DNA of 64,000 nucleotides. Origin: Minisyncoccota bacterium. Lineage in GTDB: Bacteria > Patescibacteriota > Minisyncoccia > Phycocordibacterales > UBA6065. A model generated the notes under the pieces. The model worked only from the letters and a program-made list of their open reading frames with translations. It did not search any database and had not been told where the DNA came from. Shown in pieces: positions 1,578 through 59,160 of this stretch. The stretch is from contig JBAZUA010000003.1 of the NCBI GenBank assembly GCA_041661645.1, positions 86,841-150,840 on the forward strand, written 5' to 3'. The position numbers were made by a program, and so were the translations under genes. Numbering within the stretch: position 1 is the stretch's first letter; each line of letters opens with the position of its first letter.

Positions 1578-2123
1578 ATGTCTAAACAGCAAACAGGCGG
1601 AGAGCGCCACTGGTACGCGATTCACACCTATGCCGGATACGAGAATGCCGTCGCCCGAAACCTCAGGCAGCGCATCGACTCGCTCGGCATGCAGGACAGG
1701 ATATTCAACGTGCTCGTCCCGACCGAGACCAAGATAAAGGTGAAGGGAGGCAAGCGCATCGAGGAGGAGGAAAAGGTATATCCCGGATACATCCTCGTGG
1801 ACATGATCGTGACCGATGACTCGTGGTTCATGGTTCGAAACACCCCTCGCGTCACCGGCTTCGTCGGCTCCGGCGTCCACCCAGTGCCCCTCACCCAGAA
1901 GGAGATCGACCAGCTCCTCGGACGCATGGACTCTGCGACCGTCAAGCACGAGATAAACCTCGCCCAGGACGACATCGTCCGCATCGCGGACGGCCCGTTC
2001 AAGGACATGGAGGGTCGTGTCAGCGAAGTCGACGACAATCGCGGCAAGGTCAAGGTCCTCGTGGCCATGTTCGGCCGAGAGACCCCCGTCGAGCTCGATT
2101 TCTTGCAGGTTAAGAAGATTTAA
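1578..2123 (+). CDS. nusG: transcription termination/antitermination factor NusG
   Basis: NGN domain (WYAIHTYAGYENAV) and C-terminal KOW motif (GPFKDMEGRVSEVDDNRGKVKV). Confidence 0.9.
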   Translation: MSKQQTGGERHWYAIHTYAGYENAVARNLRQRIDSLGMQDRIFNVLVPTETKIKVKGGKRIEEEEKVYPGYILVDMIVTDDSWFMVRNTPRVTGFVGSGVHPVPLTQKEIDQLLGRMDSATVKHEINLAQDDIVRIADGPFKDMEGRVSEVDDNRGKVKVLVAMFGRETPVELDFLQVKKI

Positions 2124-2153
2124 GGTAGTCTACTCCTCACTAAACAAACCATT

Positions 2154-2576
2154 ATGGCAAAGAAAATTACAAAGATGCTCAAGCTTCAGATTCCAGGCGG
2201 CAAGGCCGTTCCAGGCCAGGCCCTGGGTCCAGCCCTCGGTTCCGCCGGCATCAACATCGGCGAGTTCGTCAAGCGCTTCAACGACGAGACCAAGGCCCGC
2301 ATCGGCGAGGTGGTTCCTACCATCATCGAGGTGTACGACGACCGAAGCTACAAGCTCATCTACAAGACCGAGCCCGCATCAAAGATGATCCTCAAGGTCC
2401 TCGGAAAGGAGAGCGGTTCCGGCAAGCCTAACACCGTGAAGGTGGGCACCATCACCAAGGCTCAGGTCAAGGTGATTGCCGAGAAGAAGCTTCCCGACCT
2501 CAACACCGACGATGTCGCCGCGGCCATGAGGATGGTCGAGGGCACCGCCCGAAACATGGGAGTCGACGTCAAGTAA
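2154..2576 (+). CDS. rplK: 50S ribosomal protein L11
   Basis: MAKKITKMLKLQIPGGKA.PG.ALGPALG..GIN...F.K.FN is canonical L11. Confidence 0.95.
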   Translation: MAKKITKMLKLQIPGGKAVPGQALGPALGSAGINIGEFVKRFNDETKARIGEVVPTIIEVYDDRSYKLIYKTEPASKMILKVLGKESGSGKPNTVKVGTITKAQVKVIAEKKLPDLNTDDVAAAMRMVEGTARNMGVDVK

Positions 2577-2592
2577 GTTCACATACGAAAAG

Positions 2593-2624
2593 AAAAAGTC
2601 GCCCTTATGGGCGACTTTTTTTAT
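2593..2624 (+). terminator. rho-independent terminator after rplK
   Basis: AAAAAGTCGCCCttatGGGCGACTTTTTTT. Confidence 0.8.
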
Positions 2625-2650
2625 GCGAAGGGAAGATATATACTTCTGGC

Positions 2651-3154
2651 ATGAGCGAAAACACATCATCGGCACACATCCGCCCTTCCTGGGACGAGTA
2701 CTTCATGAAGATTTGTGGGGTCGTGGGAGAGAGGGGGACCTGCGATAGGGGCAGGGCAAGCTGTGTCATTGTGAAAGACAAGCGTATCCTGGTCACGGGC
2801 TATGCTGGCGCACCCGCTGGCGTGAGGCATTGCGATGAGGTTGGCCATGAGATTCACACGGTTATTCAGGAGGATGGAACCCAGTCAAAGCACTGCATAC
2901 GGACCAGCCATGCCGAACAGAACGCCATAGCCAATGCGGCCCGAAACGGGGTGGCGGTTTTCGAGGGCACCGTGTATTGCAATATGACCCCCTGCTATAC
3001 CTGCGCCAAGATACTCATCAATGCGGGCATAAGGAGGGTCGTTGCCAACAAGGACTATCATGCCGCCAAAAGGAGCAAGGAGGTGTTTGCCGAGGCGGGC
3101 GTGGAACTCGTCATACTCCACAACGAGGTCGAGACCTATTCGAATATGAAATAA
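2651..3154 (+). CDS. dCMP deaminase (cytidine/deoxycytidylate deaminase family)
   Basis: Zn-binding motifs HAEQNA and PCYTC..C, ComEB-like length. Confidence 0.85.
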   Translation: MSENTSSAHIRPSWDEYFMKICGVVGERGTCDRGRASCVIVKDKRILVTGYAGAPAGVRHCDEVGHEIHTVIQEDGTQSKHCIRTSHAEQNAIANAARNGVAVFEGTVYCNMTPCYTCAKILINAGIRRVVANKDYHAAKRSKEVFAEAGVELVILHNEVETYSNMK

Positions 3155-3170
3155 AGGCCCAACAGGGGCA

Positions 3171-3203
3171 CGAAAAACACCTCATTTATTGAGGTGTTTT
3201 TCG
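3171..3203. terminator. bidirectional terminator between convergent dCMP deaminase and thyX
   Basis: GAAAAACACCTCAtttatTGAGGTGTTTTTCG, with A/T tracts on both sides. Confidence 0.75.
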
Positions 3204-3224
3204 CGCCCTAGTGTAGGCCTGCTT

Positions 3225-4517
3225 TTAATCCTTTCTCACGATATCCTGCGCGCCACGCTTGATGTTCCAGGTTCCCGGCGACATGTCATGGTGCATGGCG
3301 AGACCGGGGACAGCGGCCTTGAGGGCCTCTCCCATCCTTTGGGCCTGCAGACGAAGGGTTGGATGTACGGTATCCGAAGATCTAAGCTCTGCTGTATAGA
3401 CGGCTGCGGGGAGAGGACATGTCATCTTTACGACAACTGTGTATCCCATTGCTACATAATATTGTTTGACCTCATCGCCTGCGTCGAGGGCGTCGATCTT
3501 CTGGGCCTGTGCGGCGATGAGGGCCAATGCCTCGGCCTTGAGCGCCTCGGGAAGCTGCTCGAGATACCAGTCATAGAAGCCATGTTTGGTCGAGAGGAGC
3601 GGCATCTCCTGCACGCAGCTGCGATGCCGCTGAAGGTCGCGATATGATCCGAAGTCGAGGGGAAAAGAGAAAATGATGTTTCCGTACTGGCGAATGCGCT
3701 GATGGAGTTCGGCCTTTGCTGGGCGGTCGGAAAGGAGCTTGGCGTGTCGGGCGAGACCGTCGAGGTCGAGCTTTGACTGATACGAGAATCCCGTGATCGA
3801 GGCATCGTCGAAGAAGGCGAACTCCCTCATGCTCTCGGCGATGTACGCCTCCTCGCCCGGATACTCTTTGTGAGAGAAGCTCGATGGGTACTTCCTCTTC
3901 AGTTCATCGTGAATCATGGACGCAACCTCGCGCACCTCGGCGAGGGGATGGTTTCGCATCTCCTTGATATGGTCATATGCCTGGCGAAGATTGGTGTGCC
4001 ATGCCGCGTAGGTCGTGACGCCGGCGGGGAGGAAGCCTCGGGCTATGTCGAAGGCGCGGGCCTTGATGGCCTTCTCGTACATCGTGTCCTTCTCGCCCTC
4101 CTTCATGGGGAAGCGCTCCTTGAGCACGGGCATGAGGGCCTCGAGGATGTGCCTGTAGAATGCCATCCATCCGTCCTGTATCGCCTTGCCCTCGACGCTG
4201 CCCAGGGGATTGAGCACTTCCTGTGCCGCCATGTCGAGGTAGCGGGTGCTTGCCTCCTGTCCGCTGTAAAGCGGCCAGTCCTGCACGGCCTTTGCGACGA
4301 GCATGCTGACGTTCTCGATGAATATGCTGGCCGTTCCGCAGTCTCCGATGGACTTGTGCCCGTAGCCGACATAATAGCTCGCCATGAACTTCTCGGCGCC
4401 GCCTTCCTTCACCTTGGTCAGGTGCTCTTTGACGCTGCGCGGGCTGCGCGAGTACAGGGCCTGGAGCATGGCTACCACCTCGGGGGACAGGTCATCGACG
4501 ATTATGATTTCTTTCAT
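3225..4517 (-). CDS. thyX: flavin-dependent thymidylate synthase ThyX, long form (degenerate N-terminal ThyX-like half plus canonical C-terminal half)
   Basis: ThyX signature RHRX7S present as RHRSCVQEMPLLS; an HxS..EH..F-like segment in the N-half; context with dCMP deaminase, glyA, tmk, dut. Confidence 0.7.
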   Translation of the reverse strand: MKEIIIVDDLSPEVVAMLQALYSRSPRSVKEHLTKVKEGGAEKFMASYYVGYGHKSIGDCGTASIFIENVSMLVAKAVQDWPLYSGQEASTRYLDMAAQEVLNPLGSVEGKAIQDGWMAFYRHILEALMPVLKERFPMKEGEKDTMYEKAIKARAFDIARGFLPAGVTTYAAWHTNLRQAYDHIKEMRNHPLAEVREVASMIHDELKRKYPSSFSHKEYPGEEAYIAESMREFAFFDDASITGFSYQSKLDLDGLARHAKLLSDRPAKAELHQRIRQYGNIIFSFPLDFGSYRDLQRHRSCVQEMPLLSTKHGFYDWYLEQLPEALKAEALALIAAQAQKIDALDAGDEVKQYYVAMGYTVVVKMTCPLPAAVYTAELRSSDTVHPTLRLQAQRMGEALKAAVPGLAMHHDMSPGTWNIKRGAQDIVRKD

Positions 4518-4619
4518 GGGCCTATTGTAGCGGTTTTGGGTCCGGGAAAGAAGTGCAGAACTCTGTTGACCGATGGCGTTTTAAGGCGTATAAAAAGCAA
4601 CAGAACACCTTACATAACC

Positions 4620-5147
4620 ATGAATACAATCGTAAGATCAAGACCGCTCGTGATCCCGGCTCCCTTTGAGCCCGTCGATAGTCTGCTTGGTTGCATCGGC
4701 AACATTCATTGTCGTCGGCCGTCAGAGAAGATTGTCCCGAAATCCTCCTGTGTGCTCGACATTCACTTTGTCCCCATCGGCAGGATCTGTCGGGACGCCA
4801 CCGATCTCCATCAGGGAATGCTCGACGCGCTTATCACCCACAGGCTCAAGCCGGTGTCACTGTATCAGGCCCTGTGCTTCAACAAGGATAATCAGCCCTT
4901 TCAAAGGCATCAGCCGTTCGTTGCCGCAGGGCACGCCTTCGGATCCGCCGAGCGTGATCGCTTCCAGGGTCCGTATGACGAGAGGGTCAGTCTCGAGCTC
5001 TCGAATCTCCGTCAGTTCGCGAGCGGGGGCACGTCACCGTATCTCATCATGCTGGCGACGAACCCTACTTCGGTTGACCAAGGTTGTTTTGAGGGAGAGG
5101 TCCTGAATCAGGCTCTCAAGTCCCTCATGCCGCCATTTTCTTGGTAG
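4620..5147 (+). CDS. hypothetical protein (Cys-containing, about 175 aa)
   Basis: Downstream part of a long ORF; the ATG at 4620 has the genome-typical aaccATG context; upstream part rejected as antisense of thyX. Confidence 0.3.
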   Translation: MNTIVRSRPLVIPAPFEPVDSLLGCIGNIHCRRPSEKIVPKSSCVLDIHFVPIGRICRDATDLHQGMLDALITHRLKPVSLYQALCFNKDNQPFQRHQPFVAAGHAFGSAERDRFQGPYDERVSLELSNLRQFASGGTSPYLIMLATNPTSVDQGCFEGEVLNQALKSLMPPFSW

Positions 5148-5241
5148 GTTTCATAGAGCGGCCACCCTTCCGGTGACCGCTTTTTTTATTCGTTTTCCGC
5201 ATGATAGTATTGAGGCACTTATAAGCGTCACCATCATCCCC

Positions 5242-6411
5242 ATGAAAGACACCCAGATCAAGAAGCTCATACAGGCAGAGAAGTCTCGCCAGAAGTCGGC
5301 CACGAACCTCATCGCCTCCGAGAACTACGTCTCAAAGGACGTCCTCGAGGCCCTCGGTTCCGAGCTCACCAACAAGTACGCCGAGGGTTATCCCGGCAAG
5401 CGATACTACGGGGGGAATGTCATCATCGACAAGGTGGAGAATCTGGCCATCGAGCGCGCCCTCAAATTATATGGTCTCGATGCTGCCGAGTGGCATGTGA
5501 ACACGCAGGCGCTTTCGGGATCCCCGGCGAACCTTGCCGTCTATGTCGGCCTCCTCGAGAAGGGGGACAAGGTCATGGGCATGTCTCTCGATCATGGCGG
5601 ACACCTCACTCACGGTCACAAGGTCTCGGCCACCGGAAAATTCTGGACGCAGGTGCCGTACGGCGTCTCGAAGGACATTGAGGTGCTTGATTACGAAAAC
5701 CTGAAGGAGATCGCGTTGCGCGAGAAGCCAAAGATGATCATCGCCGGCTTCACCGCATACCCTCGCGTCATCGACTGGAAGAAGTTTCGCGAGATCACCG
5801 ATGCCTGCGGGGCGTATCTCATGGTGGACATGTCGCATGTCGCCGGTCTCGTCGCGGGCAATGCGTACCCAAGCCCTTTTCCATACGCCGACATCGTCAC
5901 GACCACGACGCACAAGACCTTGCGAGGGCCCCGAGGTGCCCTCATCTTTGCAAAGAAGGATGTTCGCGACCTCGGCAAGAAGATAGACAAGGCGGTGTTC
6001 CCCGGCCTTCAGGGCGGTCCGCACATGAATCAGACGGCTGCCATCGCTGTCGCCCTCAGGGAGGCTGCGACTCCGGCCTTCAGGAAGTACGCGACGCAGG
6101 TTAAGAAGAATGCCTCGGCCCTTGCCGGCGAACTGACCAGGCTCGGCTGGAGGGTCATATCGGGGGGCACCGACAGCCATCTCATCCTCGTCGACGTGTC
6201 AGGTGCCAACATCGGCGGCGCCGAGGCGAGCGACAGGCTCGAGAGGGCAGGCATCATCGTCAACAAGAATGCGATACCTTTCGACACTCGACCGCCCGTT
6301 GACCCTTCGGGAATCAGGCTCGGCACGGCGGGGGAGACGACCAAGGGAAGGAAGGAGAAGGACATGGTCGCCCTCGCGAGAAAGATAGACCTCATTTTAC
6401 GCAGGAAATAA
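5242..6411 (+). CDS. glyA: serine hydroxymethyltransferase
   Basis: IASENYVS..VLEA.GS.LTNKYAEGYPGKRYYGG, PLP-lysine region TTTTHKTLRGPRG. Confidence 0.95.
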   Translation: MKDTQIKKLIQAEKSRQKSATNLIASENYVSKDVLEALGSELTNKYAEGYPGKRYYGGNVIIDKVENLAIERALKLYGLDAAEWHVNTQALSGSPANLAVYVGLLEKGDKVMGMSLDHGGHLTHGHKVSATGKFWTQVPYGVSKDIEVLDYENLKEIALREKPKMIIAGFTAYPRVIDWKKFREITDACGAYLMVDMSHVAGLVAGNAYPSPFPYADIVTTTTHKTLRGPRGALIFAKKDVRDLGKKIDKAVFPGLQGGPHMNQTAAIAVALREAATPAFRKYATQVKKNASALAGELTRLGWRVISGGTDSHLILVDVSGANIGGAEASDRLERAGIIVNKNAIPFDTRPPVDPSGIRLGTAGETTKGRKEKDMVALARKIDLILRRK

Positions 6412-6444
6412 TCTCTGCTATCCTGCCCTCAAACAATTGATCTT

Positions 6445-7137
6445 ATGAAAACAGAAACACAAGGCAAAGGCAGGTTGATAGTGATCGATGGAACGGACGG
6501 CTCGGGCAAGGCGACGCAGACGAAGCTCCTCGTCCAAAAGATGCAGTCTCTGGGGCGAAAGGTCGCCACCATGGACTTTCCTCGGTATGCCGACAATTTC
6601 TACGGGAAGCTCATTCGAGAGTGTCTCGACGGCAAGCACGGCGATTTCATCGGCATGGATCCGTATGTTGCATCGACGCTCTATGCGAATGACAGGCTCG
6701 AGTCCAAGCCCGTCATCATGGCACATCTCGACGCGGGCGGCGACTGGGCCTTTGATCGTTACGTGAGCGCGAATAGCATCCATCAGGGAGGGAAGATCAG
6801 GGATGAAGGGGAACGAAGAAAGTATTTCTCCTGGTCCGAGTATCTCGAATATGTCAGGAACGGGCTCCCTCGTCCCGACATAACGGTGTATCTGAACCTG
6901 GATGTCTCGGTCAGCATGAGGTTGGCCCGAGAACGCGCGATTTCCAAGGGCCAGTCTCCCGATCAGTCGGAGGGAGACGCCAAACATCAGCACGAGGCGA
7001 GGGAAAGCGCGGTCTCCATCATCCGTCAGTCCAGCAATTGGGTTTTGGTCGATTGCAACGACGGGACGGGAGGAATCCTCTCTGTCGAGGCGATTCACCA
7101 AAAGGTCTGGGACGCAGTCAGGCATCTCTTTGCATAA
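6445..7137 (+). CDS. tmk: thymidylate kinase
   Basis: P-loop IVIDGTDGSGKATQ and DRY-like motif FDRY. Confidence 0.85.
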   Translation: MKTETQGKGRLIVIDGTDGSGKATQTKLLVQKMQSLGRKVATMDFPRYADNFYGKLIRECLDGKHGDFIGMDPYVASTLYANDRLESKPVIMAHLDAGGDWAFDRYVSANSIHQGGKIRDEGERRKYFSWSEYLEYVRNGLPRPDITVYLNLDVSVSMRLARERAISKGQSPDQSEGDAKHQHEARESAVSIIRQSSNWVLVDCNDGTGGILSVEAIHQKVWDAVRHLFA

Positions 7138-7140
7138 ACG

Positions 7141-7173
7141 AAGGCCCGCGCAGCGATGCGCGGGCTTTTTTCC
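7141..7173 (+). terminator. rho-independent terminator after tmk
   Basis: GGCCCGCGCagcgatGCGCGGGCTTTTTT. Confidence 0.8.
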
Positions 7174-7195
7174 TGTTTTTTGCTATATTTTACGT

Positions 7196-7630
7196 ATGAG
7201 AAAGACTCTCAAGATAGTCAGGGTGAGGGGCAATGTTCCCATGCCGAAGTATGCCCTCGCTGGCGATGCGGGTTTTGACCTCTATGTGAGTGAGCGCATA
7301 ACTCTCGCGTCCATGGAACGAACCTCGGTTAATACGGGTTACAAGATGGAGATCCCTGATGATCACGTCGGTATGATTCAGGAGAAAAGCGGTTTGGCCC
7401 ACAAACACGGCATCATCACCTTCGGTAACGTCATTGACGCGGGATACCGGGGTGAGGTCCGGGTTGGCGTCATGAATCTTGGCGCCGAATCATACACCTT
7501 CGAGCCCGGACACAAGATTGCCCAGATGATTGTCCATAAATACGAGACAATGAGATTCAAGGAGGTGAAGGATGGTGACCTCTCGACGTCGGACAGGGGA
7601 GAGCGAGGCTTCGGTAGCACGGGCAAATAA
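7196..7630 (+). CDS. dut: dUTP diphosphatase (dUTPase)
   Basis: AGDAGFDLY, GVIDAGYRGEV and C-terminal DRGERGFGSTG motifs; the ORF upstream of 7196 runs through the terminator. Confidence 0.9.
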   Translation: MRKTLKIVRVRGNVPMPKYALAGDAGFDLYVSERITLASMERTSVNTGYKMEIPDDHVGMIQEKSGLAHKHGIITFGNVIDAGYRGEVRVGVMNLGAESYTFEPGHKIAQMIVHKYETMRFKEVKDGDLSTSDRGERGFGSTGK

Positions 7631-7634
7631 ACAT

Positions 7635-9350
7635 ATGGTCATCCAAGACTTAAAATTACTCATACAGAAGGCTCTCAAGAATCTTTCGCTCGAAGCGGGA
7701 GATTTTACGATAGAGCATCCCGCCGACATGTCGCGCGGCGACTTTGCGACGAGCGTTGCACTCTCTCTGGCTAAACAGGCCAAGGTGAACCCTCGTGAGC
7801 TTGCCGATAGGATAGCGACGGAACTCAACCTCGCAAAGCCCTCGTACATCGAAAAAATGGAAGTCGCGGGCGCAGGGTTCATCAATATAACGCTTTCCAG
7901 GACTTTCTTTGCCCACGAGATGGAGGTCATTCTCAAGCGTGGCAAGCTCTATGGCTCGTCGAACGAGTGGAGGGGCACCAAGGCGCTCGTCGAATACACC
8001 GATCCGAACCCTCTCAAGGTGTTCCACATTGGTCACCTCATGTCGAACGCCATCGGAGAATCGATCGCGCGTCTTATCGCCTCGCAGGGCGCCAAGGTCC
8101 GCCGCATGTGCTATCAGGGAGACGTGGGCCTCCACATAGCCAAGACCCTGTGGGGGATCATGAGGCGAGAGGGGGAATTCCCGTCGCGTCGCGTGCCCAT
8201 CGCCGATCGAGTCGCCTTCCTCGGGGCCTGCTATGTTCAGGGGTCGAACGCATACGAGGATAGTCCCGAGGCAAAGACCGAGATAGAGGCCATAAACAAG
8301 AAGATATACGAGGGCTCCGACAGGAAGCTCATGAAGTACTATAAGCTCGGACGCACGTGGAGCCTCGACCATCTCGAGGGGATATACAAGAAGCTTGGAA
8401 CCAGGTTTGACTATTATGTGCTTGAGAGCGAGATCATGCACGACGGCGTCGCCATCGTGAACGAGTATCTCGAGAAGGGGATATTCGAGAAGAGCGACGG
8501 CGCTGTCGTCTTCAGGGGCGAGGCCCATGACCCGAAGCTCCACACCCGCGTCTTCATTAATTCTCAGGGACTGCCGACATATGAGGCAAAGGAACTCGGC
8601 CTTAATACTCGCAAGTGGAAGAGGGTCCGTCCCGACCGCTCGATCATAATCACGGCGAACGAGCAGTCGGACTATTTTCGCGTGGTGCTCAAGGCCTTCG
8701 AGCTTATCCTGCCCGAGGCACGCAAGGTGACCGAACATGTCTCTCATGGCATGATGCGCTTTGCCGACGGAAAGATGGGTTCCCGAAAGGGTAATATCAT
8801 CACCGGGGAATCCATGATCGAGGACGTCGAGAAGATGGTCTTCGAGAAGCTCGTCGGTCGCGACATGCCAGAGAAGGACAAGGCGGGCGTCGCCGAGATC
8901 GTCGCCGTGTCGGCAATCAAATATTCCATACTCAAGCAGACAACGTCGAGCGACATCATCTATGATTTCGACAAGTCCATATCGTTCGAGGGTGATTCGG
9001 GCCCGTACCTTTTGTATACCGCGGTCCGTGCCGGTGCGATTCTGGCAAAGGCAGATAAAGAAAAGATAAAAGGGAAGATAGCCCCTGACGCCGAGCCCGA
9101 TGCGATTTCAAGGACGCTTGCCCGCTTCCCGGAAGTCGTGTCTCGCGCCGCGAACGAGAAGGCTCCCCATTATGTCGCCACCTATCTGACCGAGCTCTCG
9201 TCACTTTTCAACTCGTGGTATGCGAATACGACCATTGTGAGCAAAGACGATCCTCTGTCCCCACACAGGGTTGCTTTGACCAGGGCTGTGCGCATCGTCC
9301 TCGTGAACGGGCTTGATCTGCTGGGCATCAAGGCACCTGAGAGGATGTAG
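7635..9350 (+). CDS. argS: arginyl-tRNA synthetase
   Basis: ArgRS N-terminal add-1 domain, HIGH-like HIGHLMSNAIGES, C-terminal DALR anticodon-binding region; start taken at the ATG with aacatATG context. Confidence 0.9.
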   Translation: MVIQDLKLLIQKALKNLSLEAGDFTIEHPADMSRGDFATSVALSLAKQAKVNPRELADRIATELNLAKPSYIEKMEVAGAGFINITLSRTFFAHEMEVILKRGKLYGSSNEWRGTKALVEYTDPNPLKVFHIGHLMSNAIGESIARLIASQGAKVRRMCYQGDVGLHIAKTLWGIMRREGEFPSRRVPIADRVAFLGACYVQGSNAYEDSPEAKTEIEAINKKIYEGSDRKLMKYYKLGRTWSLDHLEGIYKKLGTRFDYYVLESEIMHDGVAIVNEYLEKGIFEKSDGAVVFRGEAHDPKLHTRVFINSQGLPTYEAKELGLNTRKWKRVRPDRSIIITANEQSDYFRVVLKAFELILPEARKVTEHVSHGMMRFADGKMGSRKGNIITGESMIEDVEKMVFEKLVGRDMPEKDKAGVAEIVAVSAIKYSILKQTTSSDIIYDFDKSISFEGDSGPYLLYTAVRAGAILAKADKEKIKGKIAPDAEPDAISRTLARFPEVVSRAANEKAPHYVATYLTELSSLFNSWYANTTIVSKDDPLSPHRVALTRAVRIVLVNGLDLLGIKAPERM

Positions 9351-9398: not shown

Positions 9399-9911
9399 AT
9401 GTCGCACCAAATTGTTCCGTCAACCGCACCTAAACCAACAATCCAACAATTAATACAGAAAGGGTATTTAAGGCTTAACTATGATGACTCTGTCCCATTG
9501 CTCGCAAGGGCCGAGCTCGCAGGCATAGATGTCAGGAATCCCAATGTCAGGTTTATGCTCAGGGAACAGGCCCTGCCGAGGGGCATCAGCTTTCTGGGGA
9601 CGTTCCTTTGCAGACAGGTCTCGTCAGCCGTCAGGCGCGTGGATTTCCTTCGGGACACGTGCCGAGAGTTTGGCGATTGTCAGTTCGCCATCATTCCCGA
9701 GACAGTGGCGTTCCTTGCCGAATACGCGCCCTATTGTGGGTATCTGAGGGTCGTCTGTGCGAATTCGGGGATAGAGAGGCTTGGTGGGGACCATGTCCTG
9801 TCAATGTTTTTCAAGCGCAATCACGACACCCAGAAGATTGACGTCTCGGTGTCCGGGGGTAACGGCCAGGGTGTCCTGAGCAGGGATGACGTCGTCCTCT
9901 TCAAAAGGTGA
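9399..9911 (+). CDS. hypothetical protein
   Basis: 170-aa ORF with genome-typical codon usage and a downstream terminator; no recognisable domain. Confidence 0.4.
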   Translation: MSHQIVPSTAPKPTIQQLIQKGYLRLNYDDSVPLLARAELAGIDVRNPNVRFMLREQALPRGISFLGTFLCRQVSSAVRRVDFLRDTCREFGDCQFAIIPETVAFLAEYAPYCGYLRVVCANSGIERLGGDHVLSMFFKRNHDTQKIDVSVSGGNGQGVLSRDDVVLFKR

Positions 9912-9991: not shown

Positions 9992-12900
9992 ATGGCAGAA
10001 AACACCAATAACCCGCAGGAGCCAAAAATCAAGTCAAAGCTCGTTGAATTGGAGGCCAAGACCCTGGCCTTCTGGAACGAGAGGCAGATTTTCAAGAAGA
10101 CCCTCGCCCGAAAAGGAAAGGACTTTGTCTTCTATGACGGGCCTCCGTTCGCGACGGGCCTTCCTCATTTCGGCCACCTTCTGCCGACCACCATCAAGGA
10201 CATCATCCCTCGATACAAGACCATGCAAGGGTATCGAGTTAAGCGACGCTGGGGCTGGGACTGTCACGGCCTTCCCGTCGAGAATCTCATCGAGAAGGAG
10301 CTCGGCCTCAAGTCTAAGAAGGACATACTCGACTATGGCATAGGCAAGTTCAACGCGGCCGCCGAGGCGAGCGTGCTTCGCTATGCCAAGGAGTGGAGGG
10401 AGATCATACCCCGCATCGGGCGATGGGTGGACATGGAGGAGGATTATCGCACCATGGACTGCGGATACACGGAATCCGTGTGGTGGGCATTCAAGACCCT
10501 TCATGACAAAGGGCTCGTCTATGAGGGATTCAAGTCCATGCAGATCTGTCCGCGCTGCGAGACGACGCTCTCTAACTTCGAGGTGAATCAGGGCTACAAG
10601 GACATCACTGATATATCGGTATTCGTTCGCCTCGAGCTCGTGGGGGAGGAGAACACGCATCTCCTCGCCTGGACCACGACGCCGTGGACCTTGCCTGGAA
10701 ACGTGGCGCTCGCCGTCGGTTCCGAGATCGACTATGCCCGCGTGTCCCATGATGGGGCGACCTACATAATCGCACGCGACAGAGTCGCCGATGTGTTTGC
10801 AGGCAAGGAGCACTCGCTCATGTCTGTCGAGAAGGGAAGCGCGCTTGTGGGCAAGGAATACAAGCCCCTTTTCTCCTATTTTGACAACGGGGGTCTCAAG
10901 AATCGCGCCAATGGGTTCAAGATATATGCCGCAGAGTTCGTCACGACTGCGGATGGTACCGGCATCGTGCACATCGCGCCCGCCTTCGGTGATGATGACC
11001 TCAAGCTGGGGCAGAAGCATGACCTTCCGTTCATACAGCACGTGGGCATGAATGGCGTGTTCGTTCCCGAGGTTCTCGACTTCAGGGGACTCGAGGTGAA
11101 GCCCAAGGGTGACCATCAGAGCACTGACATCGAGGTCATCAAGTGGCTCGCCCACAAGGGATTCCTCTTCGAGAAGAAGAAGATAATTCATTCGTATCCG
11201 CACTGCTGGCGTTGTGACACCCCTCTCCTTAACTATGCCACCTCTTCGTGGTTCGTTCGCGTCACCGATTTCAAGGACAAGCTCGTGGCGGCGAACAAGA
11301 AGGTGTCCTGGACGCCGTCTGACATCCGTGACGGGCGCTTCGGCAAATGGCTCGAGGGCGCGCGCGACTGGGCGATATCACGCTCCCGATTCTGGGGCGC
11401 GCCGATACCCGTCTGGAGGGGCATCAAGAGCGGAAAGATATATCCCGTCGGAAGCATAGGTGATCTCAAATCCCTCATAAGGAAATCAGGAAATTCGTAC
11501 ACGCTCCTGCGACATGGCGAGTCAGAGTCGAACGTCCTCGGCATACTCAATTCTGAATTCCCAAACAAATACCATTTGACCAAGAAGGGCAGGGAGCAGA
11601 TATCGGAGCGGGCAAAGGCCCTTGCCGCGCAGGGCGTCGACGTGATCGTCGCGTCGGACTTCCTTCGCACCAAGGAGAGCGCCAGAATCGTCGCCGAGGC
11701 CTGCGGCATGGACGCCAAGGACATCGTGTATGACGTGCGCCTTCGCGAGTACAGCGTCGGCCCCAATCTCGAGGGTCAGGCCTGGGAGAGCATAGAGGCC
11801 GCCGTGAGGAAACACGGCCTTCAGGCCGGCATGGAGACCCCTGCCGAGCTCAAGAGGCGCGTCCTTGACGCGATGTACGATATCGACAGGAAATATTTTG
11901 GCAAGAAAATACTTGTCATAAGTCACGGTGCGCCCCTCAACACCATCCTTCATGGCGTGCAGGAGGTGCCAGGAACCGACAAGGTCTCGCACAGCGAGCG
12001 CAAGAGCTTCCAGACTCCCGCCGAGATGCACTCTTTGGATTTCGTGGCGCTCCCTCATAACGAGCGATTCGACCTTGACCTTCATAGGCCATTCATCGAC
12101 AAGGTCGAGTGTGTCGCCCCAGACGGGGAGGAGCTTGTTCGCGTGTCCGAGGTCTTTGACTGCTGGTTCGAGTCAGGATCAATGCCGTTCGCCCAGTTCC
12201 ATTACACAGGCTCGGCACTGCCTCACTTTAACCCGCGCGGCGGACTCTTCAGGAAAGCGCTCGGCTTTCCCGCCGATTTTATCGCCGAGGGGGTAGACCA
12301 AACTCGGGGCTGGTTTTATACGCTCACCGTGCTTGGCGTGGCCCTCTTTGGGAGGTCTCCATTCAAGAATGTGATTGTGAACGGCATTGTTCTCGCCGAG
12401 GATGGGCAGAAGATGGCCAAGTCAAAAGGTAACTTCCCGCCGCTTCTTGACACTGTCGACAAATACGGCGCCGACTCGCTGCGATATTTCTTTGCCTCGA
12501 GTCCCGCGGTGAAGGCCGAGGACACGCGCTTCTCGGAGAAGGGCGTCGACGAGGTGTCAAAGAAGCTGCTTCAGAGGCTCGATAATGTTCTGTCGTTCTT
12601 CGAGCTCTACGGCGATGCCAAGACCCCGATGGTTCCTGATTCCGCCCACGTGCTCGACTCATGGATACGTGCGCGTCTTGCCGAGGTCCGAGACGAGGTG
12701 ACTGCCGCTCTCGATGCCTGCCAGATAGATCGTGCCGCACGACCCCTCATGGGCTTCGTCGACGATCTCTCGACCTGGTATATTCGCCGATCCCGAGACC
12801 GATTCAAGTCCGATAATGCCGTCGATCAGGCCCTCGCCCTCGGCACCACGAAATACGTCTTGCGCGAGTTTGCCAAGATATCCGCCCCTTTCATACCGTT

Positions 12901-13483
12901 CTATGCCGAATATCTCTTCGGTCGCGTTCGCGTTGACGCCAACGAGGAGAGTGTTCACCTCGAGCTGTGGCCAAGATGTGTCACAAAAAAGGAATCCCAG
13001 AAACTCATCGATGACATGTCCGAAATTCGCCGACTCGTCACCATTGGCCTCGAGCAAAGGGCCAAGGCGGGCATAAAGGTTCGCCAGCCGCTCGCGTCCC
13101 TTTCCATCAAGAAGGATCAGTTTTGCACGGACCTCCTCGACCTTGTGAAGGACGAGGTTAACGTAAAAGAGGTTCTTCTCGACACGTCTCTCGATCAGGA
13201 GGTTGTCCTCGATGTCGTGGTCACTGACGTCCTTAAGAAAGAGGGCGTCGCTCGCGATGTCATTCGCGCGGTGCAGGATCTCCGCAAGAAGGAGGGTCTG
13301 ACGGTGGGGGACAAGGTCTCGCTTCTTTTGGATTCCGATGAGAAGGGCAAGGAGCTGGTCCATGCTTTTCTCGGCGACATAAAGAGGGTGACCCTCGTTA
13401 CGGGGATCGAATATGCCACCCTTCCTCATGTCGAGCCCCTGGCCATCGAGGGCTACTCATTCAGGCTCGGCATCAGGAAGTAA
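9992..13483 (+). CDS. ileS: isoleucyl-tRNA synthetase, type 2 (eukaryote-like), carrying an inserted histidine-phosphatase domain
   Basis: HIGH = PPFATGLPHFGH; KMSKS = KMAKSKGN; EVFDCWFESGSMPFAQ matches the yeast ILS1 segment; 1163 aa. Confidence 0.9.
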   Translation: MAENTNNPQEPKIKSKLVELEAKTLAFWNERQIFKKTLARKGKDFVFYDGPPFATGLPHFGHLLPTTIKDIIPRYKTMQGYRVKRRWGWDCHGLPVENLIEKELGLKSKKDILDYGIGKFNAAAEASVLRYAKEWREIIPRIGRWVDMEEDYRTMDCGYTESVWWAFKTLHDKGLVYEGFKSMQICPRCETTLSNFEVNQGYKDITDISVFVRLELVGEENTHLLAWTTTPWTLPGNVALAVGSEIDYARVSHDGATYIIARDRVADVFAGKEHSLMSVEKGSALVGKEYKPLFSYFDNGGLKNRANGFKIYAAEFVTTADGTGIVHIAPAFGDDDLKLGQKHDLPFIQHVGMNGVFVPEVLDFRGLEVKPKGDHQSTDIEVIKWLAHKGFLFEKKKIIHSYPHCWRCDTPLLNYATSSWFVRVTDFKDKLVAANKKVSWTPSDIRDGRFGKWLEGARDWAISRSRFWGAPIPVWRGIKSGKIYPVGSIGDLKSLIRKSGNSYTLLRHGESESNVLGILNSEFPNKYHLTKKGREQISERAKALAAQGVDVIVASDFLRTKESARIVAEACGMDAKDIVYDVRLREYSVGPNLEGQAWESIEAAVRKHGLQAGMETPAELKRRVLDAMYDIDRKYFGKKILVISHGAPLNTILHGVQEVPGTDKVSHSERKSFQTPAEMHSLDFVALPHNERFDLDLHRPFIDKVECVAPDGEELVRVSEVFDCWFESGSMPFAQFHYTGSALPHFNPRGGLFRKALGFPADFIAEGVDQTRGWFYTLTVLGVALFGRSPFKNVIVNGIVLAEDGQKMAKSKGNFPPLLDTVDKYGADSLRYFFASSPAVKAEDTRFSEKGVDEVSKKLLQRLDNVLSFFELYGDAKTPMVPDSAHVLDSWIRARLAEVRDEVTAALDACQIDRAARPLMGFVDDLSTWYIRRSRDRFKSDNAVDQALALGTTKYVLREFAKISAPFIPFYAEYLFGRVRVDANEESVHLELWPRCVTKKESQKLIDDMSEIRRLVTIGLEQRAKAGIKVRQPLASLSIKKDQFCTDLLDLVKDEVNVKEVLLDTSLDQEVVLDVVVTDVLKKEGVARDVIRAVQDLRKKEGLTVGDKVSLLLDSDEKGKELVHAFLGDIKRVTLVTGIEYATLPHVEPLAIEGYSFRLGIRK
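11492..12070 (+). other. about 193-aa histidine-phosphatase (PGAM-like, branch 1) domain inserted in-frame in ileS between ...PIPVW..IRKSG and DLDLHRPFIDK..EVFDCWFESG
   Basis: LLRHGESESN (catalytic RHG) and ILVISHGAPL (second His); flanking residues align contiguously with yeast ILS1 (GVRNITDLHRDVIDK). Confidence 0.65.
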
Positions 13484-13495: not shown

Positions 13496-14038
13496 ATGTC
13501 CTATTCCGTATACAGCACTCGCGGCTTCATTCTCGGAAGCGCGCCTTCGGGTGAGGCGGGCAAGACGTATTTCCTATACACCGAGCAGTTCGGGCTTGTC
13601 CGCGCCACGGCTATCGGCGTCCGCCACCTCAAGTCGAAGCTCCGCTATAATCTCGAGGATTACGGTTTCGTCACCTTTTCGCTGGTACGAGGCAAGGAGT
13701 TCTGGCGCATCACGGGTGCGGTGTCGGAAGCGGGCGCGGGCCACGACAGTCCTACGGGGCAGGACCTGCTCCAGGCCCGCGCCCGCATACTCAGCTTCAT
13801 GAAGCGCCTTGTCCAGGGCGAGGAACGCAACGACGATCTCTTTGTGGTGCTCCTCAGCCTTTTCGCCCAAGACGCATCGACGCTCGCGACTAAAGGGGAC
13901 CTCGTTGATTTCGAGACGCGCATTCTCGCCCGCTGCCTTGCCGCTCTCGGGTACGTAGACCTGGCCTCCATTGAGGGCATGGAACAGAGGGAGATGATTG
14001 TGGCGATCAACAAGGCCCTCAGGGAGAGTCATCTCTAG
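13496..14038 (+). CDS. recO: DNA repair protein RecO-like (short form)
   Basis: N-terminal OB-fold pattern (GFILGSAPSGEAGKTYFLYTEQFGLVRATAIGVRHLKSK) resembling the RecO N-domain; shorter than typical RecO. Confidence 0.45.
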   Translation: MSYSVYSTRGFILGSAPSGEAGKTYFLYTEQFGLVRATAIGVRHLKSKLRYNLEDYGFVTFSLVRGKEFWRITGAVSEAGAGHDSPTGQDLLQARARILSFMKRLVQGEERNDDLFVVLLSLFAQDASTLATKGDLVDFETRILARCLAALGYVDLASIEGMEQREMIVAINKALRESHL

Positions 14039-41992: not shown

Positions 41993-42885
41993 ATCTCTAT
42001 TCCGATTATGTTAAACCCTCAATCAAAAGCGGACTAGATAAGACCAGTTTCTGGCCTTGTTTAAGTACCGCTCAGACCGAGCGGTTTTTAATTTTCGGGA
42101 GGTGCTGTTATTTGAAATACGAACCCCGTCCCACTAGTCTTCCGCCCTCAAAAGCGGATGGTCTTTTCAAGAGTGGAGACGACTACATTCGTACGTTAGA
42201 TCGTGCGGATGTAAAACCTGCATCTTTCTCCCAGGAAGAGAGGATGCAGTGCAACAGGTAAAAATTAAATTGTATGAGTGTTCGTTGTAAGCGAACACTC
42301 TCATTGAGAATGAGTTTAAGTGGTTTTTAAATTTCCTAATAGGAAATTTAAGAGCATATGGTGGATGCCTTGGCTTCTGAGAAGCGATGAAGGACGTTGC
42401 GTAGCGACGATATGTTCGGGGAGCTGCCGAGCGAGCTTTGATCCGAACGTTTCCGAATGAGGAAACTCCATGTCGAGTGATCGACATGACCTTGGCCTTT
42501 ATGGTCAAGGAGCATACCCTGGGAAGTAAAACATTTCAGTACCAGGAGGAAGAGAAAACAATGTCCGCGTACTGCGGACGATATTTCCTTAGTAGTGGCG
42601 AGCGAAAGGGAAAGAGCCCAAACCTAGTCTTAATCGTGCGGTATGTCGCAAGACGTGCAGCGCGATTAAGACTGGGGGTTGTAAGATGATGATGTCACTA
42701 TTTATAGTGGAAAGAGTTACAAAATGTTTTGTTAGCAGAATTGGCTGGAAAGCCAGACCCTAGTGAGTGATAGTCTCGTATGCGAAAATAAAACATCTCT
42801 TTTATTGTCATTCTTGAGTACCCCAGGACACGAAAAGCTTGGGGGAATCTACCGGAACTAACCGGTAAGGCTAAATATTCCAGAA

Positions 42886-42918
<33 letters not shown>

Positions 42919-43505
42919 CGAAAAGAACCCCGGAGAGGGGAGTGAAATAGACCTGAAACCATATGCTTACAAGGAGTCGGAGCGGTAATTTATTACCGTC
43001 ACGGCGTGCCTATTGAAGAATGAGCCAACGAGTTAATGCATGCTGCAAGGCTAAGGGCTTGAATGCCCGGAGCCGCAGGGAAACCGAGTGTGAATAGCGC
43101 GACTCAGTAGTATGTATTAGACCCGAAGCCGGGTGAGCTTGCCATGTGCAGGTTGAAGTTTGTCGAAAGACAGATGGAGGACCGAACGCTAGAGACGTGC
43201 AATACTCTGCGATGACATGTGGTATGGAGTGATAAGCTCATCGAACTCGGTAATAGCTGGTTCTCTCCGAAATATGTTTAGGCATAGCGTCGTATGTTCC
43301 CACGAGGGGTAGAGCACTGGAAGATTCTGACAGGTAGAAATACCGCAGAACCTATCAAACTCCGAATACTCGTGGTTAAAAGTACGGCAGTAAGACCGTG
43401 GGGGCTAAGCTCCACAGGTCAAAAGGGAAACAGCCCGCATCTCAATTTAAGGTCCCAAAATTCATGCTAAGTACAAGTGAGGTGGTGAATCTTCTCTGAC
43501 GGTGA

Positions 43506-43537
<32 letters not shown>

Positions 43538-44389
43538 GAAAGCGTAACAGCTCACTCACTTAGAGGGTTTGCGCCGCAGATGATCGGGGTTAAAGCATGA
43601 TACCGAAACTGAGGATTGCATCCATATTCGTATGGGTGCACTGGTAGGAGAGTATTCTACTCTGCGATGAAGGCAAAGGGGTGACCCATGCTGGAGCGTG
43701 TAGAAGTAAGAATGTTGGCACAAGTAACCACAATGCGGATGAGAAATCCGCACGCCGGAAGATTAAGGTTTCCTTCGCAATGGATTTCAGCGAAGGGTTA
43801 GTCGGGCCTAAGGGGATGGTGAAAACCGTACCTGATGGACACATGGTTAATATTCCATGACTGGCGTTTGGTGCGATGGGAGGACGGAGCACAGTATGTG
43901 TAGCCCCTTATTGGATTGGGGTTGTTGGTCTCAGGGCGATATGCGAGGAAAATCCCGCATTCTGCATTTATTTGCGAGCCTAAGGACAGACGGGAAGGCT
44001 GGGTTCGCCCAGCGGAACTACACAGAGCGAGCTTTCAAGAAAATTCTCTAAGCATAACCAAACGCTATCCGTACCGAAAACCGAAACAGGTGATCGGCTC
44101 GAGGAGAGCAAGGCGAACGAGTGAAGGTCCTTCAAGGAACTCGGCAAAAAATCAGCCGTAAGTTAGCGATAAGGCTTGCCCTCTCTTTATTGAGGGGGCC
44201 GCAGCGAAAGTATGCCTGGCGACTGTTTATCAAAAACACAGCTCCCTGCGAACTCGTAAGAGGATGTATAGGGGGTGACACTTGACCAATGCCAGAAGGT
44301 CAACCAGCGGCGTTGCCACGTATTTATACGTGGTGGTGACTGCTGTAAGCCCTGGTGAATGTCGGCGGTAACTATAACCGTCCTAAGGT

Positions 44390-44606
44390 TCTGCATCTTT
44401 CGCAAGAAGGGTGCAGAAGGACTGGGACGGTCATAGCAGTGTTAGATGAACAAGAACCTAATAGAAGTTACACAAATAGCTACCTGACATCGCAGTAATG
44501 CATTGTCAGTCCACACATGATCAACAAGAGACCAACGTCATGGATCCGAACTCGTCAATTCGTTGATGGGAGGATTAAGATAGAGTCCGACTTAGAGGAA
44601 TAGTTG
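44390..44606 (+). ncRNA. putative group I intron (217 nt) in 23S, between E. coli-equivalent U1931 and A1932 (CCUAAGGU | AGCGAAAUUCC)
   Basis: Exon sequence is contiguous with E. coli once 44390-44606 is removed; 5' exon ends in U, insert ends in G; internal AAGATAGAGTCCGAC resembles the group I J8/7-P7 3' strand. Confidence 0.5.
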
Positions 44607-45267
44607 AGCGCAATTCCTTGTCAGGTAAGTTCTGACGCGTTGAATAGTGTAACGTCTGGGCAACTGTCTCGAAGGACAGCTCGGTGAAAATACAATCCCG
44701 GTGAAGATGCCGGGTACCTGCAGTTAGACGAAAAGACCCTAGAAGCTTTACTATAGCTTGATATTGAGTATACGATTCTGATGCGTAGCATAGACGTGAG
44801 GATTTGAAGTGCGCTTTCGGGTAGCATGGATCCGCCAGTGAAATAGCGTTCTTCAGTGTTGTATATTCTAACCCCGAGGGCAAAAACCGCGGGAGACAGT
44901 ATCTGGTGGGTAGTTTTAGTGGGGCGCTATCCTCCTAAAAAGTAACGGAGGAGCCTATTAAGGTCAGTTAGCCGTGAATGGAAACCATGGCGATAGTGTA
45001 TGGGCATAAACTGGCTTAACTGTAAGACGTACATGTCGAGCAGATGCGAAAGCAGAGCTAAGTGAACCGACGGATCGCGTTAGATGCGGCCGGAGATTAT
45101 CGGACAAAAGCTACCCTAGGGATAACAGGCTCGTTCCGCCTAAGAGTTCATATCGACGGCGGAGTTCGGCACCTCGATGTCGGCTCATCTTATCCTGGGG
45201 CTGGAGAAGGTCCCAAGGGTTTGGCTGTTCGCCAATTAAAAAGGTACGTGAGCTGGGTTCAGACCGT

Positions 45268-45556
45268 TCAGAAGGTGATTGCGCATAGTCGCGCGATCAT
45301 GCACTGGACAGTCTGAATCCCTCGGACATCATGAGGAAAAAAGAGACAACAACCAATCACGGCGCCCGCAACGAGCAATCATTGCGGAGCCAGTTAACTA
45401 ATATCGGTGAAGCCCGACAGGCGCAAGCTTGGGGTAATACCGAGGGAAGCAGAGTCATATCTGCACCCGTAGAGACTACACGTTAACCTCCACATCGAAA
45501 TAATGAGATGTGGATGAAGATATAGTCCAATGCACAGAGTAATTTGTGAAAACATG
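45268..45556 (+). ncRNA. putative group I intron (289 nt) in 23S at the E. coli-equivalent L2593 site (GAACGU | CGUGAGACAG)
   Basis: Exons rejoin to GAGCTGGGTTCAGACCGT/CGTGAGACAGGTTGGTC; 5' exon ends in U, intron ends in G; contains GTAGAGACTACACG (P7 5'-like GACUA) and GAAGATATAGTCC, which matches the Tetrahymena J8/7-P7 element AAGAUAUAGUC. Confidence 0.6.
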
Positions 45557-45956
45557 CGTGAGACAGGTTGGTCTCCTATCTACTGCAGGCGTTGATTCTT
45601 GAGGAGTTTTGCTTCTAGTACGAGAGGACCGAAGTGAACGGACCGCTGGTCTGCCTGCTGTCACGCCCGTGGCAACGCAGGGTAGCTATGTCCGGAACGG
45701 ATAACCACTGAAAGCATCTAAGTGGGAAGCCGCCTCCAAGATAAGGAATCGTTTGAGGGCCCTAGGAGACTACTAGGTTGATAGGCTTTAGGTGTACACG
45801 CAGCAATGCGTTGAGCCGAGAAGTACTAATTACCCGATCTTATTAGGAAATTTATGAATCACTCATGGCGAGGGCCATGATTACTGATTCTTGATGATTT
45901 AATTATATTTGTTGCAAGTTCGTATTCCTGAAAACAGCACGATTGAATTCTGTGTT

Positions 45957-46062
45957 CTGGTGATTTAACGCGGTGGCACCACCTCTTCCCATCCCGAACA
46001 GAGAAGTTAAACGCCGTAGTGCCGATGATAGTCCTTATGGGCGAAAGTAGGTAGTCGCCAGT
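45957..46062 (+). rRNA. rrf: 5S ribosomal RNA
   Basis: GCGGTGGCACCACCTCTTCCCATCCCGAACAGAGAAGTTAAACGCCGTAGTGCCGATGATAGT...GTAGGTAGTCGCCAG; flanking processing stem GATTGAATTCTGTG / CACAGAATTCAATC. Confidence 0.85.
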
Positions 46063-46081
46063 ACACAGAATTCAATCAAAG

Positions 46082-56173: not shown

Positions 56174-56256
56174 GTCGAAGTGGTGGAATGGCAGACACGC
56201 TGCGTTCAGGTCGCAGTGAGCTCACGCTCGTGGGGGTTCAAGTCCCCCCTTCGACA
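56174..56256 (+). tRNA. tRNA-Leu (anticodon CAG), long variable arm, no encoded CCA
   Basis: Acceptor GTCGAAG/CTTCGAC, anticodon stem CTGCG/CGCAG with loop TTCAGGT, variable arm, T-arm GGGGGTTCAAGTCCCCC, discriminator A. Confidence 0.8.
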
Positions 56257-56264
56257 CAATAGGT

Positions 56265-59023: not shown

Positions 59024-59160
59024 GTGAAAACCGCTTTCCACTCTGTGGAGAGCTTACGGAGTCGATCATATTTATATGGGTTTTTCAGATACCTACAACT
59101 GAATGGACGTCAGGGAAGAACTGGCAAACAGAACGGAGCAAAGTAGAGGATAGTATGAAG

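Follow-up and report, generated by a model that had tools for sequence, protein, structure and literature searches.

A PhoE-like histidine phosphatase nested in the isoleucyl-tRNA synthetase of Paceibacteria

Aminoacyl-tRNA synthetases (aaRS) are among the most conserved enzymes, and the bacterial ones are thought to gain only modules for charging, editing or tRNA binding. In a 64,000-nucleotide stretch of a Minisyncoccota genome (contig JBAZUA010000003.1 of assembly GCA_041661645.1; hereafter, the window), ileS encodes an isoleucyl-tRNA synthetase (IleRS) that carries a histidine phosphatase domain between its two halves. How did such a domain come to lie inside a housekeeping synthetase, and what might it do there? 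Here, we find a probably autonomous enzyme of an unrelated superfamily within the catalytic body of IleRS, with its predicted active site intact in hundreds of species. Its relatives include a gene that lies beside an uninserted ileS, which suggests where the domain came from. Its substrate is harder to name, and several possibilities are weighed below.

A phosphatase within the catalytic body of IleRS

In profile searches, PF00300 (His_Phos_1) matches residues 504-660 of the window IleRS with an E-value of 3.7e-26 in the whole protein, and the excised residues 501-693, for which the cut-off is 21.7 bits, reach a score of 97.6 with an E-value of 9.5e-28. A first-pass annotation, made from the letters alone, had described a PGAM-like histidine phosphatase at this position. 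Membership of the histidine phosphatases (branch 1) is borne out; the PGAM label is not. Phosphoglycerate mutase (dPGM; NF038349, TIGR01258) was tried as an identity for the domain and rejected, with 78.7 bits versus a cut-off of 225 for dPGM_arch and 17.8 versus 81.7 for pgm_1. Because the equivalog models of dPGM lie so far out of reach, we prefer the label PhoE-like phosphatase. The nearest solved protein by sequence is indeed PhoE (1EBB/1H2E; E 2e-6), and R507-H508-G509, N514, R559, E586 and H645 all match PhoE residues in the alignment. In histidine phosphatases generally, the histidine of the RHG motif attacks the terminal phosphate to give a phospho-enzyme, a glutamate or aspartate serves as acid/base, and two arginines, an asparagine and a second histidine hold the phosphate. 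Each of these residues is present in the window protein and is invariant, or nearly so, among 120 homologues (Table 1), which disposes of the concern that a catalytic histidine or arginine might be missing. Also unchanged are E615 and R623 (120 of 120 homologues) and G509 (119 of 120). Meanwhile, the insert as a whole averages just 43% identity to the window protein, versus 66-70% for the catalytic core of the synthetase. A conserved active site in the midst of a drifting domain argues for catalysis over a purely structural role.

The predicted fold tells the same story. An AlphaFold2 model of the insert alone has a predicted local distance difference test score (pLDDT) of 94.5, and a Foldseek search with this model yields template-modelling scores (TMq) of 0.70-0.77, with E-values of 1e-9 to 3e-12, to PhoE, phosphoserine phosphatases, TIGAR and CobC. 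The best structural matches comprise TIGAR, the phosphoserine phosphatases of Hydrogenobacter and Entamoeba, a riboflavin-pathway phosphatase, Rv3214, CobC and PhoE. PhoE (YhfR) of Geobacillus stearothermophilus shares with the insert its fold (TMq 0.77), its size of ~190-200 residues, and the RHG, Asn, second Arg, Glu and SHG His residues. The two proteins are only ~24% identical, though, and the cap region of the insert differs and is variable. Moreover, PhoE, PspA, CobC, TIGAR and GpgP are all free-standing, whereas the domain in the window is nested. Free-standing phosphatases of 191-198 residues align end to end with residues 501-685, so the insert corresponds to a whole protein. Judged by its sequence, then, the insert is a complete small histidine phosphatase of the PhoE type, with the full predicted catalytic set intact.

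The host protein is equally recognizable. It scores 827 bits against the TIGR00392 ileS equivalog (cut-off 621), and its Pfam domains are PF00133 (tRNA-synt_1), Anticodon_1 and the type-2 C-terminal DUF5915. It is nearer to type-2 enzymes, the eukaryote-like and mupirocin-resistant type, than to IleRS1: the bit scores are 706 for P. megaterium IleRS2 (8C8U), 677 for human IleRS and 289 for P. megaterium IleRS1 (8C9E). It shares domain order, motifs and type-2 C-terminal domains with P. megaterium IleRS2 (8C8U/8C8V), the Thermus thermophilus enzyme (1ILE) and yeast IleRS (8WND). Two specialized forms of IleRS were considered and rejected. Against the mupirocin-resistance models MupA and MupB (NF000257/NF000258), the window protein scores 740 and 694 bits, with a cut-off of 1900; against the model for IleRS containing a GNAT domain (NF040702), it scores 329 bits versus 1999, and the GNAT match is absent.

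Where exactly does the phosphatase sit? Solved type-2 IleRS structures align on both sides of the insert, and 5-7 residues in these structures take the place of ~200 in the window protein (residues 480 to 488 in T. thermophilus, 491 to 498 in human and 499 to 505 in Candida IleRS). In an uninserted relative from the Candidate Phyla Radiation (CPR), the same loop spans residues 472 to 478. The two halves of this eukaryote-like, type-2 synthetase are thus contiguous around the insert, as originally proposed, and the ~195-residue domain is no normal part of type-2 IleRS, in view of both the short loop of the solved structures and the sister clade described below. The boundaries first suggested, nucleotides 11492-12070, were right to within eight codons, the fold ending at nucleotide 12046, and the strings quoted in support (LLRHGESESN, VISHGAPL, PIPVW, DLHRPFIDK and EVFDCWFESGS) were all located in the translation, each where it had been placed. 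In P. megaterium IleRS2 numbering, the insertion site falls at about residues 478-484. The second half of the catalytic HUP fold begins at residue 513 of that enzyme (PMC10485003). The site lies ~30 residues ahead of the second HUP half and hence within the connective peptide that the same paper names CP2.

In uninserted CPR relatives, a four-cysteine zinc-knuckle (CxxC ... CxC) has its loop at the insertion site, and T. thermophilus IleRS carries four zinc-knuckle cysteines there as well. Both cysteine pairs are present in all 117 uninserted relatives, in a segment fixed at 28 residues. Among 119 inserted proteins, 32 keep both pairs and 87 are without both, including that of the window, where the vacated positions are residues 476-482 and 707-712 (nucleotides ~11417-11437 and ~12110-12127). 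With a folded domain in its loop, the knuckle seems to depend less on zinc. The linker that follows the phosphatase (residues 686-695) is conserved within the inserted family, and it appears similar to the loop of the host, PLPEPFD in T. thermophilus.

Does the synthetase tolerate its guest? A full-length AlphaFold2 model, built from a 73-sequence alignment, has a mean pLDDT of 86.5 and a predicted template-modelling score (pTM) of 0.75, with pLDDT values of 89-97 over residues 490-700. On superposition, its score to known structures (TMt) is 0.91 for 1ILE, 0.82 for 8C8V and 0.82-0.89 for the yeast IleRS-tRNA structure 8WND; taken together, type-2 structures score 0.82-0.91 versus 0.65-0.77 for type 1. 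The HIGH, KMSKS and editing motifs are all retained, and the synthetase body as modelled has a normal fold.

Distribution of the nested domain and its free-standing relatives

Nesting of the phosphatase is by no means peculiar to this genome. PF00300 is found in all 120 best homologues of the window IleRS, down to 52% identity. A genome scan covering one genome per GTDB species, with a junction-spanning alignment as the query, found junction matches in at least 326 species genomes, all of them Paceibacteria or Parcubacteria by name. All 80 loci that were fetched are colinear, with the N-terminal part of IleRS, the insert and the C-terminal part in order, and the position of the insert is always identical in the homologues and loci examined. 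The record names of these loci include Paceibacterota, Parcubacteria, Nomura-, Zambryski-, Taylor-, Vogel- and Adlerbacteria, and Minisyncoccia. One such locus (L032 in our numbering of loci; QYPD01000003.1) belongs to a metagenome-assembled genome labelled 'Spirochaetia bacterium'; there, an inserted IleRS of the Paceibacteria type lies on an 8.5-kb contig that is probably mis-binned. Many other loci were labelled 'uncultured Candidatus Saccharibacteria' by one pipeline, and the IleRS in these is likewise of the Paceibacteria type.

The domain was initially flagged as unusual for an aaRS. Full-text searches of the literature turned up no description of such a phosphatase within an aaRS, and a 2026 survey of 96,219 IleRS sequences makes no mention of a phosphatase, CPR or Patescibacteria. 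Proteins with the insert are already deposited publicly under the generic name 'class I tRNA ligase family protein', and their PF00300 annotation is precomputed. Precedents of other kinds do exist. Folded modules nested in loops of the IleRS, ValRS and LeuRS bodies include the CP1 editing domain, the leucine-specific domain of LeuRS and the INS of IleRS2 in ARD2 (PMC10485003; bioRxiv 10.64898/2026.02.03.703510; PMC13114784). These class Ia modules have their part in aminoacylation, in editing or in the binding of tRNA. None is an autonomous enzyme of another superfamily whose members are also encoded by separate genes. NF040702, with its N-acetyltransferase domain, is a curated precedent for an IleRS that has an extra enzymatic domain, but the enzyme is a different one. 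The mycobacterial RNase H/acid phosphatase (Rv2228c/RnhC type, NF005567) joins a nucleic-acid enzyme to a CobC/PhoE-like His_Phos_1 domain, in this case by end-to-end fusion rather than internal insertion. Its phosphatase half scores 57 bits with the insert (cut-off 326), and one protein in our collection (P0012) has that architecture.

Where did the domain come from? In one locus (L001), a free-standing relative (P0003) lies between argS and an uninserted ileS, whose product is 49% identical to that of the window and retains the zinc-knuckle cysteines. Relatives of P0003 in JGI metagenomes show two states, either an argS-phosphatase-ileS operon or argS followed by an inserted ileS. In the first state (L001, L089, L094, L096 and L102-L105), the uninserted IleRS has 930-1005 residues and the genes abut or overlap. 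In L096, for example, argS spans nucleotides 1747-3399, the phosphatase gene 3396-3995 and ileS 3997-6861 (954 residues, uninserted); L089, L090 and L094 are similar. The second state is seen in L086-L088, L091-L093, L097 and L098. All 120 best homologues of the uninserted IleRS are without PF00300, and those with names are Candidatus Staskawiczbacteria or Paceibacterales. All four sister-clade loci that were sampled read (AA_kinase)-argS-His_Phos_1-[nothing, NUDIX or a 279-residue unknown]-ileS-X-recO; in L103, a free-standing MutT-like NUDIX gene (3049-3495) occupies the slot between phosphatase and ileS.

Synteny of argS, ileS and recO is common to the inserted and uninserted states. Among the 80 inserted loci, argS lies upstream in at least 50 and recO downstream in 62. 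Genes of nucleotide metabolism precede this core in both clades, namely tmk and dut in the window and a pyrH-like AA_kinase gene in the sister clade. Parsimony favours a move of the operon partner ~1.5 kb downstream, into the ileS reading frame. For a synthetase with a nested or appended domain, the evolutionary trail is unusually clear: it offers a natural before-and-after series from neighbour gene to nested domain, replacement of the zinc-knuckle included.

The phosphatase is also found at other positions and in other hosts. We searched the insert against 1.84 billion cluster representatives, which gave 4178 matches at E<=1e-3 and 378 at E<=1e-10, and classified the best 150. About 100 domain copies among these lie at the canonical site (site A), in complete or fragmentary IleRS, bar four copies in ValRS (P0134 and P0169) that were labelled site A by default of the classifier. 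Tandem copies at site A are seen in IleRS P0217 (1468 residues), P0231, P0250 and P0200. Site B is a second IleRS loop, after FESGSMPF (P0163, P0203, P0140), and site C a third, between the catalytic body and the anticodon-binding domain (P0216, P0194, P0163, P0203); in P0252, site C holds the sole phosphatase copy. As for ValRS, P0169 carries one copy, at the equivalent of site B, and P0134 carries four, the equivalent of site A included. Members of the same phosphatase sub-family are fused to the C terminus of ArgRS (P0263) and of the threonylcarbamoyl-AMP synthase TsaC (P0232). Two further IleRS proteins carry an additional enzyme domain besides the phosphatase, a NUDIX domain inserted in the editing region of P0249 and a GNAT domain in P0131 (1325 residues). 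The catalytic set is intact in 3 of 3 copies at site B, 5 of 5 at site C and 93 of 105 at site A. Proteins with multiple inserts are encoded on contigs of up to 1.06 Mb, and all aaRS hosts found belong to class I.

Possible roles of the nested phosphatase

Reading these sequences together, we lean, if only slightly, toward the view that the domain is an autonomous, active phosphomonoesterase, once an operon partner of IleRS and now internalized into it, for which a substrate of the nucleotide type would be the best guess. The nested form would have arisen by internalization of the neighbouring phosphatase gene, and the zinc ligands would have become dispensable afterwards, with the folded insert bracing the loop. 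The domain would behave as an autonomous lobe that uses the standard chemistry of its family: His508 would attack the terminal phosphate to give a phospho-histidine, Glu586 would protonate the leaving group, and Arg507, Arg559, Asn514 and His645 would hold the phosphate. Fusion would keep the phosphatase at a 1:1 ratio with class I synthetases and close to them. The reaction may be hydrolysis of a nucleotide-type phosphate ester, tied to the aminoacylation cycle in which ATP is converted to AMP and pyrophosphate.

This choice of substrate is the more tentative part of the proposal, plausible without being probable. It is favoured by the fact that every fusion partner turns ATP into AMP and pyrophosphate, by the NUDIX domains that accompany the phosphatase (the MutT-like neighbour in L103 and the co-insert in P0249), and by the neighbouring pyrH-like, tmk and dut genes. 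Candidate substrates would be a nucleoside monophosphate or another nucleotide by-product and, less likely, the phosphorylated 3′ end of a tRNA. The first-pass annotation had offered a regulatory or moonlighting module, which might act on a phospho-metabolite or an alarmone, as a further candidate. A more specific version of the idea, which seems improbable to us, is that the nested phosphatase, together with an operon-linked or co-inserted NUDIX enzyme in some lineages, frees the 3′ end of the tRNA from a phosphate or pyrophosphate that blocks it, or else degrades an inhibitory nucleotide formed in the active site. If so, the synthetase would restore its own substrate or relieve its own inhibition, and an aaRS would have a new form of quality control, or of self-defence, built into it. 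In any event, the locus makes a strong guilt-by-association case that ties a phosphatase activity to tRNA charging in the CPR, whose physiology is largely unknown. Should the substrate be a tRNA end or a nucleotide made by the synthetase, a new layer of translation control would come into view; should it be a plain metabolite, the nesting of such a domain in an essential enzyme would still be striking.

Several points weigh against the reading favoured here. The insert reaches no equivalog family model, and its best family matches (dPGM_arch, CobC and phosphoserine phosphatase) are metabolic enzymes; with no cut-off reached, the substrates of PhoE-type enzymes cannot simply be transferred to it. 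The cap region, which shapes the substrate pocket in this family, is variable among the homologues, with indels, and is deleted in one, which argues against a single sharply defined substrate. With a pI of 6.7 (family median 6.5), the insert is not basic and so has no obvious RNA-binding surface of its own. The evolutionary side has its weak points as well. A neighbour-joining tree of 161 domain copies has distances of 0.6-0.7 throughout and does not separate one origin from several for sites A, B and C and the free-standing forms; it groups, loosely, only the site-C copies and the site-B copies of P0163 and P0203. A single internalization, and its direction, are therefore arguments from parsimony. 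Finally, genes of tiny genomes can stay adjacent in an operon although nothing links their functions.

This last point leads to the alternative that fares best. It is possible, though unlikely, that the domain is a hitch-hiking metabolic enzyme, i.e. an ordinary phosphatase of phosphoserine, sugar phosphates or cofactors, or a small mutase, that belonged to the argS-ileS operon and was fused in the course of genome streamlining, its link to IleRS being co-expression and nothing else. The company it keeps among known proteins fits, since its top NCBIfam and structural neighbours (dPGM_arch, CobC, PspA, TIGAR, the riboflavin-pathway phosphatase) are metabolic, as does the neutral pI. Distant free-standing relatives in two loci (L002, L005) lie in unrelated metabolic neighbourhoods; that in a third (L004) has a context that is uninformative or unrelated. 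Mere co-expression accounts poorly, however, for the independent joining of this sub-family to four translation-related, adenylate-forming enzymes, namely IleRS (in three loops), ValRS (in at least two), ArgRS and TsaC, often in multiple copies. Nor does it readily explain why at least 326 species retain the nesting, together with an unimpaired active site, although internal insertion is much rarer than end-to-end fusion of neighbours.

Repair of tRNA ends is less probable still. Here, the domain would remove a 2′/3′-phosphate or a pyrophosphate from the CCA end, with the help of NUDIX in some lineages, so that the tRNA could be recharged on the same enzyme; such blocked ends might stem from the action of toxins or nucleases. 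Kurata and colleagues (2021) reportedly described toxins that add pyrophosphate to the CCA end. Ties of the domain to four enzymes of the tRNA charging and modification pathway, and its pairing with NUDIX, a pyrophosphohydrolase, are in line with such a role, but its lack of basic character is not. To our knowledge, TsaC, an enzyme of the t6A pathway, binds no tRNA, and we know of no histidine phosphatase that acts on RNA ends. A free-standing relative (P0006; L003, 2710-4594) does lie two genes downstream of a tRNA-splicing endonuclease gene (tRNA_int_endo); the contig may come from an archaeon, and the case is an isolated hint at a connection with RNA ends.

A protein phosphatase that removes inhibitory phosphates placed on the synthetase or a partner, for instance by toxin kinases of the HipA type, appears quite improbable. 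The superfamily does include the protein phosphatases SixA, PGAM5 and Sts-1, and HipA/HipT kinases target GltX and TrpS, which suits hosts that are class I throughout. The insert has a weak match to SixA (E 2e-4), but its score is 21 bits versus a cut-off of 74.5; no kinase was seen in the neighbourhoods examined, and the TsaC fusion and the NUDIX partner fit such a role poorly. We give slightly less credence again to a pseudo-enzyme, whose fold would be retained to brace the connective peptide or to sense phosphate or another ligand, without turnover. Loss of zinc-knuckle cysteines from most inserted proteins suggests that a structural role has been taken over, and the Asn or the Glu is replaced in ~11% of representatives at site A. 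In contrast, neither the nucleophile nor the general acid varies among sequences only ~43% identical, and the same holds for both arginines and the second histidine; extra copies in other loops keep their catalytic residues as well; a brace would not need a general acid.

That the architecture is an artefact or a selfish element can be dismissed: an assembly chimera is rejected by the recurrence of the architecture in many studies, on independent contigs that number in the hundreds and reach 1.06 Mb, a recent mobile insertion by the fixed position, the conserved synteny and a GC content (0.56-0.63) equal to that of the flanks, and an intein by the histidine phosphatase fold, by the absence of Hint, intein or endonuclease Pfam matches and by the conserved His689-Asn690, which superficially resembles an intein C-terminus and is followed by Glu or Asp in place of Cys, Ser or Thr. 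On the last of these, the first-pass annotation had already spoken of an intein-free insertion, correctly.

Genomic setting in the window

Gene order in the window is tmk, dut, argS, ORF170 (an open reading frame of 170 codons), ileS with its insert, and a recO-like gene (Table 1). Could ORF170, which occupies the slot between argS and ileS, be what is left of the phosphatase gene? No Pfam family matches it, and a tblastn search of 80 related loci, several with a gap of about that size at the same place, gave no homologue; on these grounds a detectable phosphatase remnant is ruled out. Apart from the ileS insert, no His_Phos or NUDIX open reading frame is present in the 64-kb window, and the IleRS described here is the sole one visible.

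Table 1. Positions of the nested phosphatase, of its host gene and of adjoining genes; nucleotides are counted from the first letter of the window and residues (aa) from the start of IleRS
Feature	Nucleotides	Strand	Residues	Remarks
PhoE-like histidine phosphatase insert	11492..12046	+	501-685	aligned end to end with free-standing phosphatases of ~195 aa
LLRHGESESN	11504-11533		505-514	contains the RHG motif
Arg507-His508	11510..11515	+	507-508	RHG motif; 120/120 homologues; His508, predicted phospho-accepting nucleophile
Asn514	11531..11533	+	514	phosphate-pocket residue; 119/120 homologues
Arg559	11666..11668	+	559	second phosphate-binding Arg; 120/120 homologues
Glu586	11747..11749	+	586	predicted general acid/base; 120/120 homologues
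VISHGAPL			642-649	contains the SHG motif
His645	11924..11926	+	645	second catalytic His, SHG motif; 120/120 homologues
N-side flank	11402..11491	+	471-500	PIPVW strand and first half of the former zinc-knuckle; CxxC cysteines gone
C-side junction	12047..12103	+		linker ALPHNERFDL (aa 686-695), then DLHRPFIDK; followed by the second zinc-knuckle half, its cysteines gone
ileS	9992..13483	+		type-2 IleRS hosting the insert; single uninterrupted open reading frame, 1163 aa
PHFGH	10163-10177	+	58-62	HIGH-type motif
TTTPWTLPGN		+	228-237	editing motif
GTGIVHIAPAFG		+	322-333	editing motif
PIPVW		+	471-475	before the insert
DLHRPFIDK		+	696-704	after the insert
EVFDCWFESGS		+	720-730	after the insert
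KMAKS	12410-12424	+	807-811	KMSKS-type motif
tmk	6445-7137	+		precedes dut
dut	7130-7630	+		precedes argS
argS	7572..9350	+		ArgRS, 592 aa; conserved upstream neighbour of ileS
ORF170	9399..9911	+		170 aa; fills the variable argS-ileS slot, which in relatives holds the phosphatase and sometimes NUDIX
recO-like gene	13496..14038	+		conserved downstream neighbour

Farther along the window lie rRNA genes that are unlinked and unusually ordered. The 23S rRNA gene (42334-45850, + strand) comes first, followed by 5S (45956-46063), and 16S (57532-59025) lies ~11.5 kb downstream. At 3517 nt, the 23S gene exceeds its 2925-nt model by ~590 nt of extra sequence. A group-I-intron-like match inside it (45305-45549; RF00028, 44.4 bits with a gathering score of 50, E 2.9e-9) covers ~245 nt. 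A tRNA-Leu(CAG) gene is found at 56174-56257, and a tRNA-Ile(GAT) gene follows 16S at 59701-59774.

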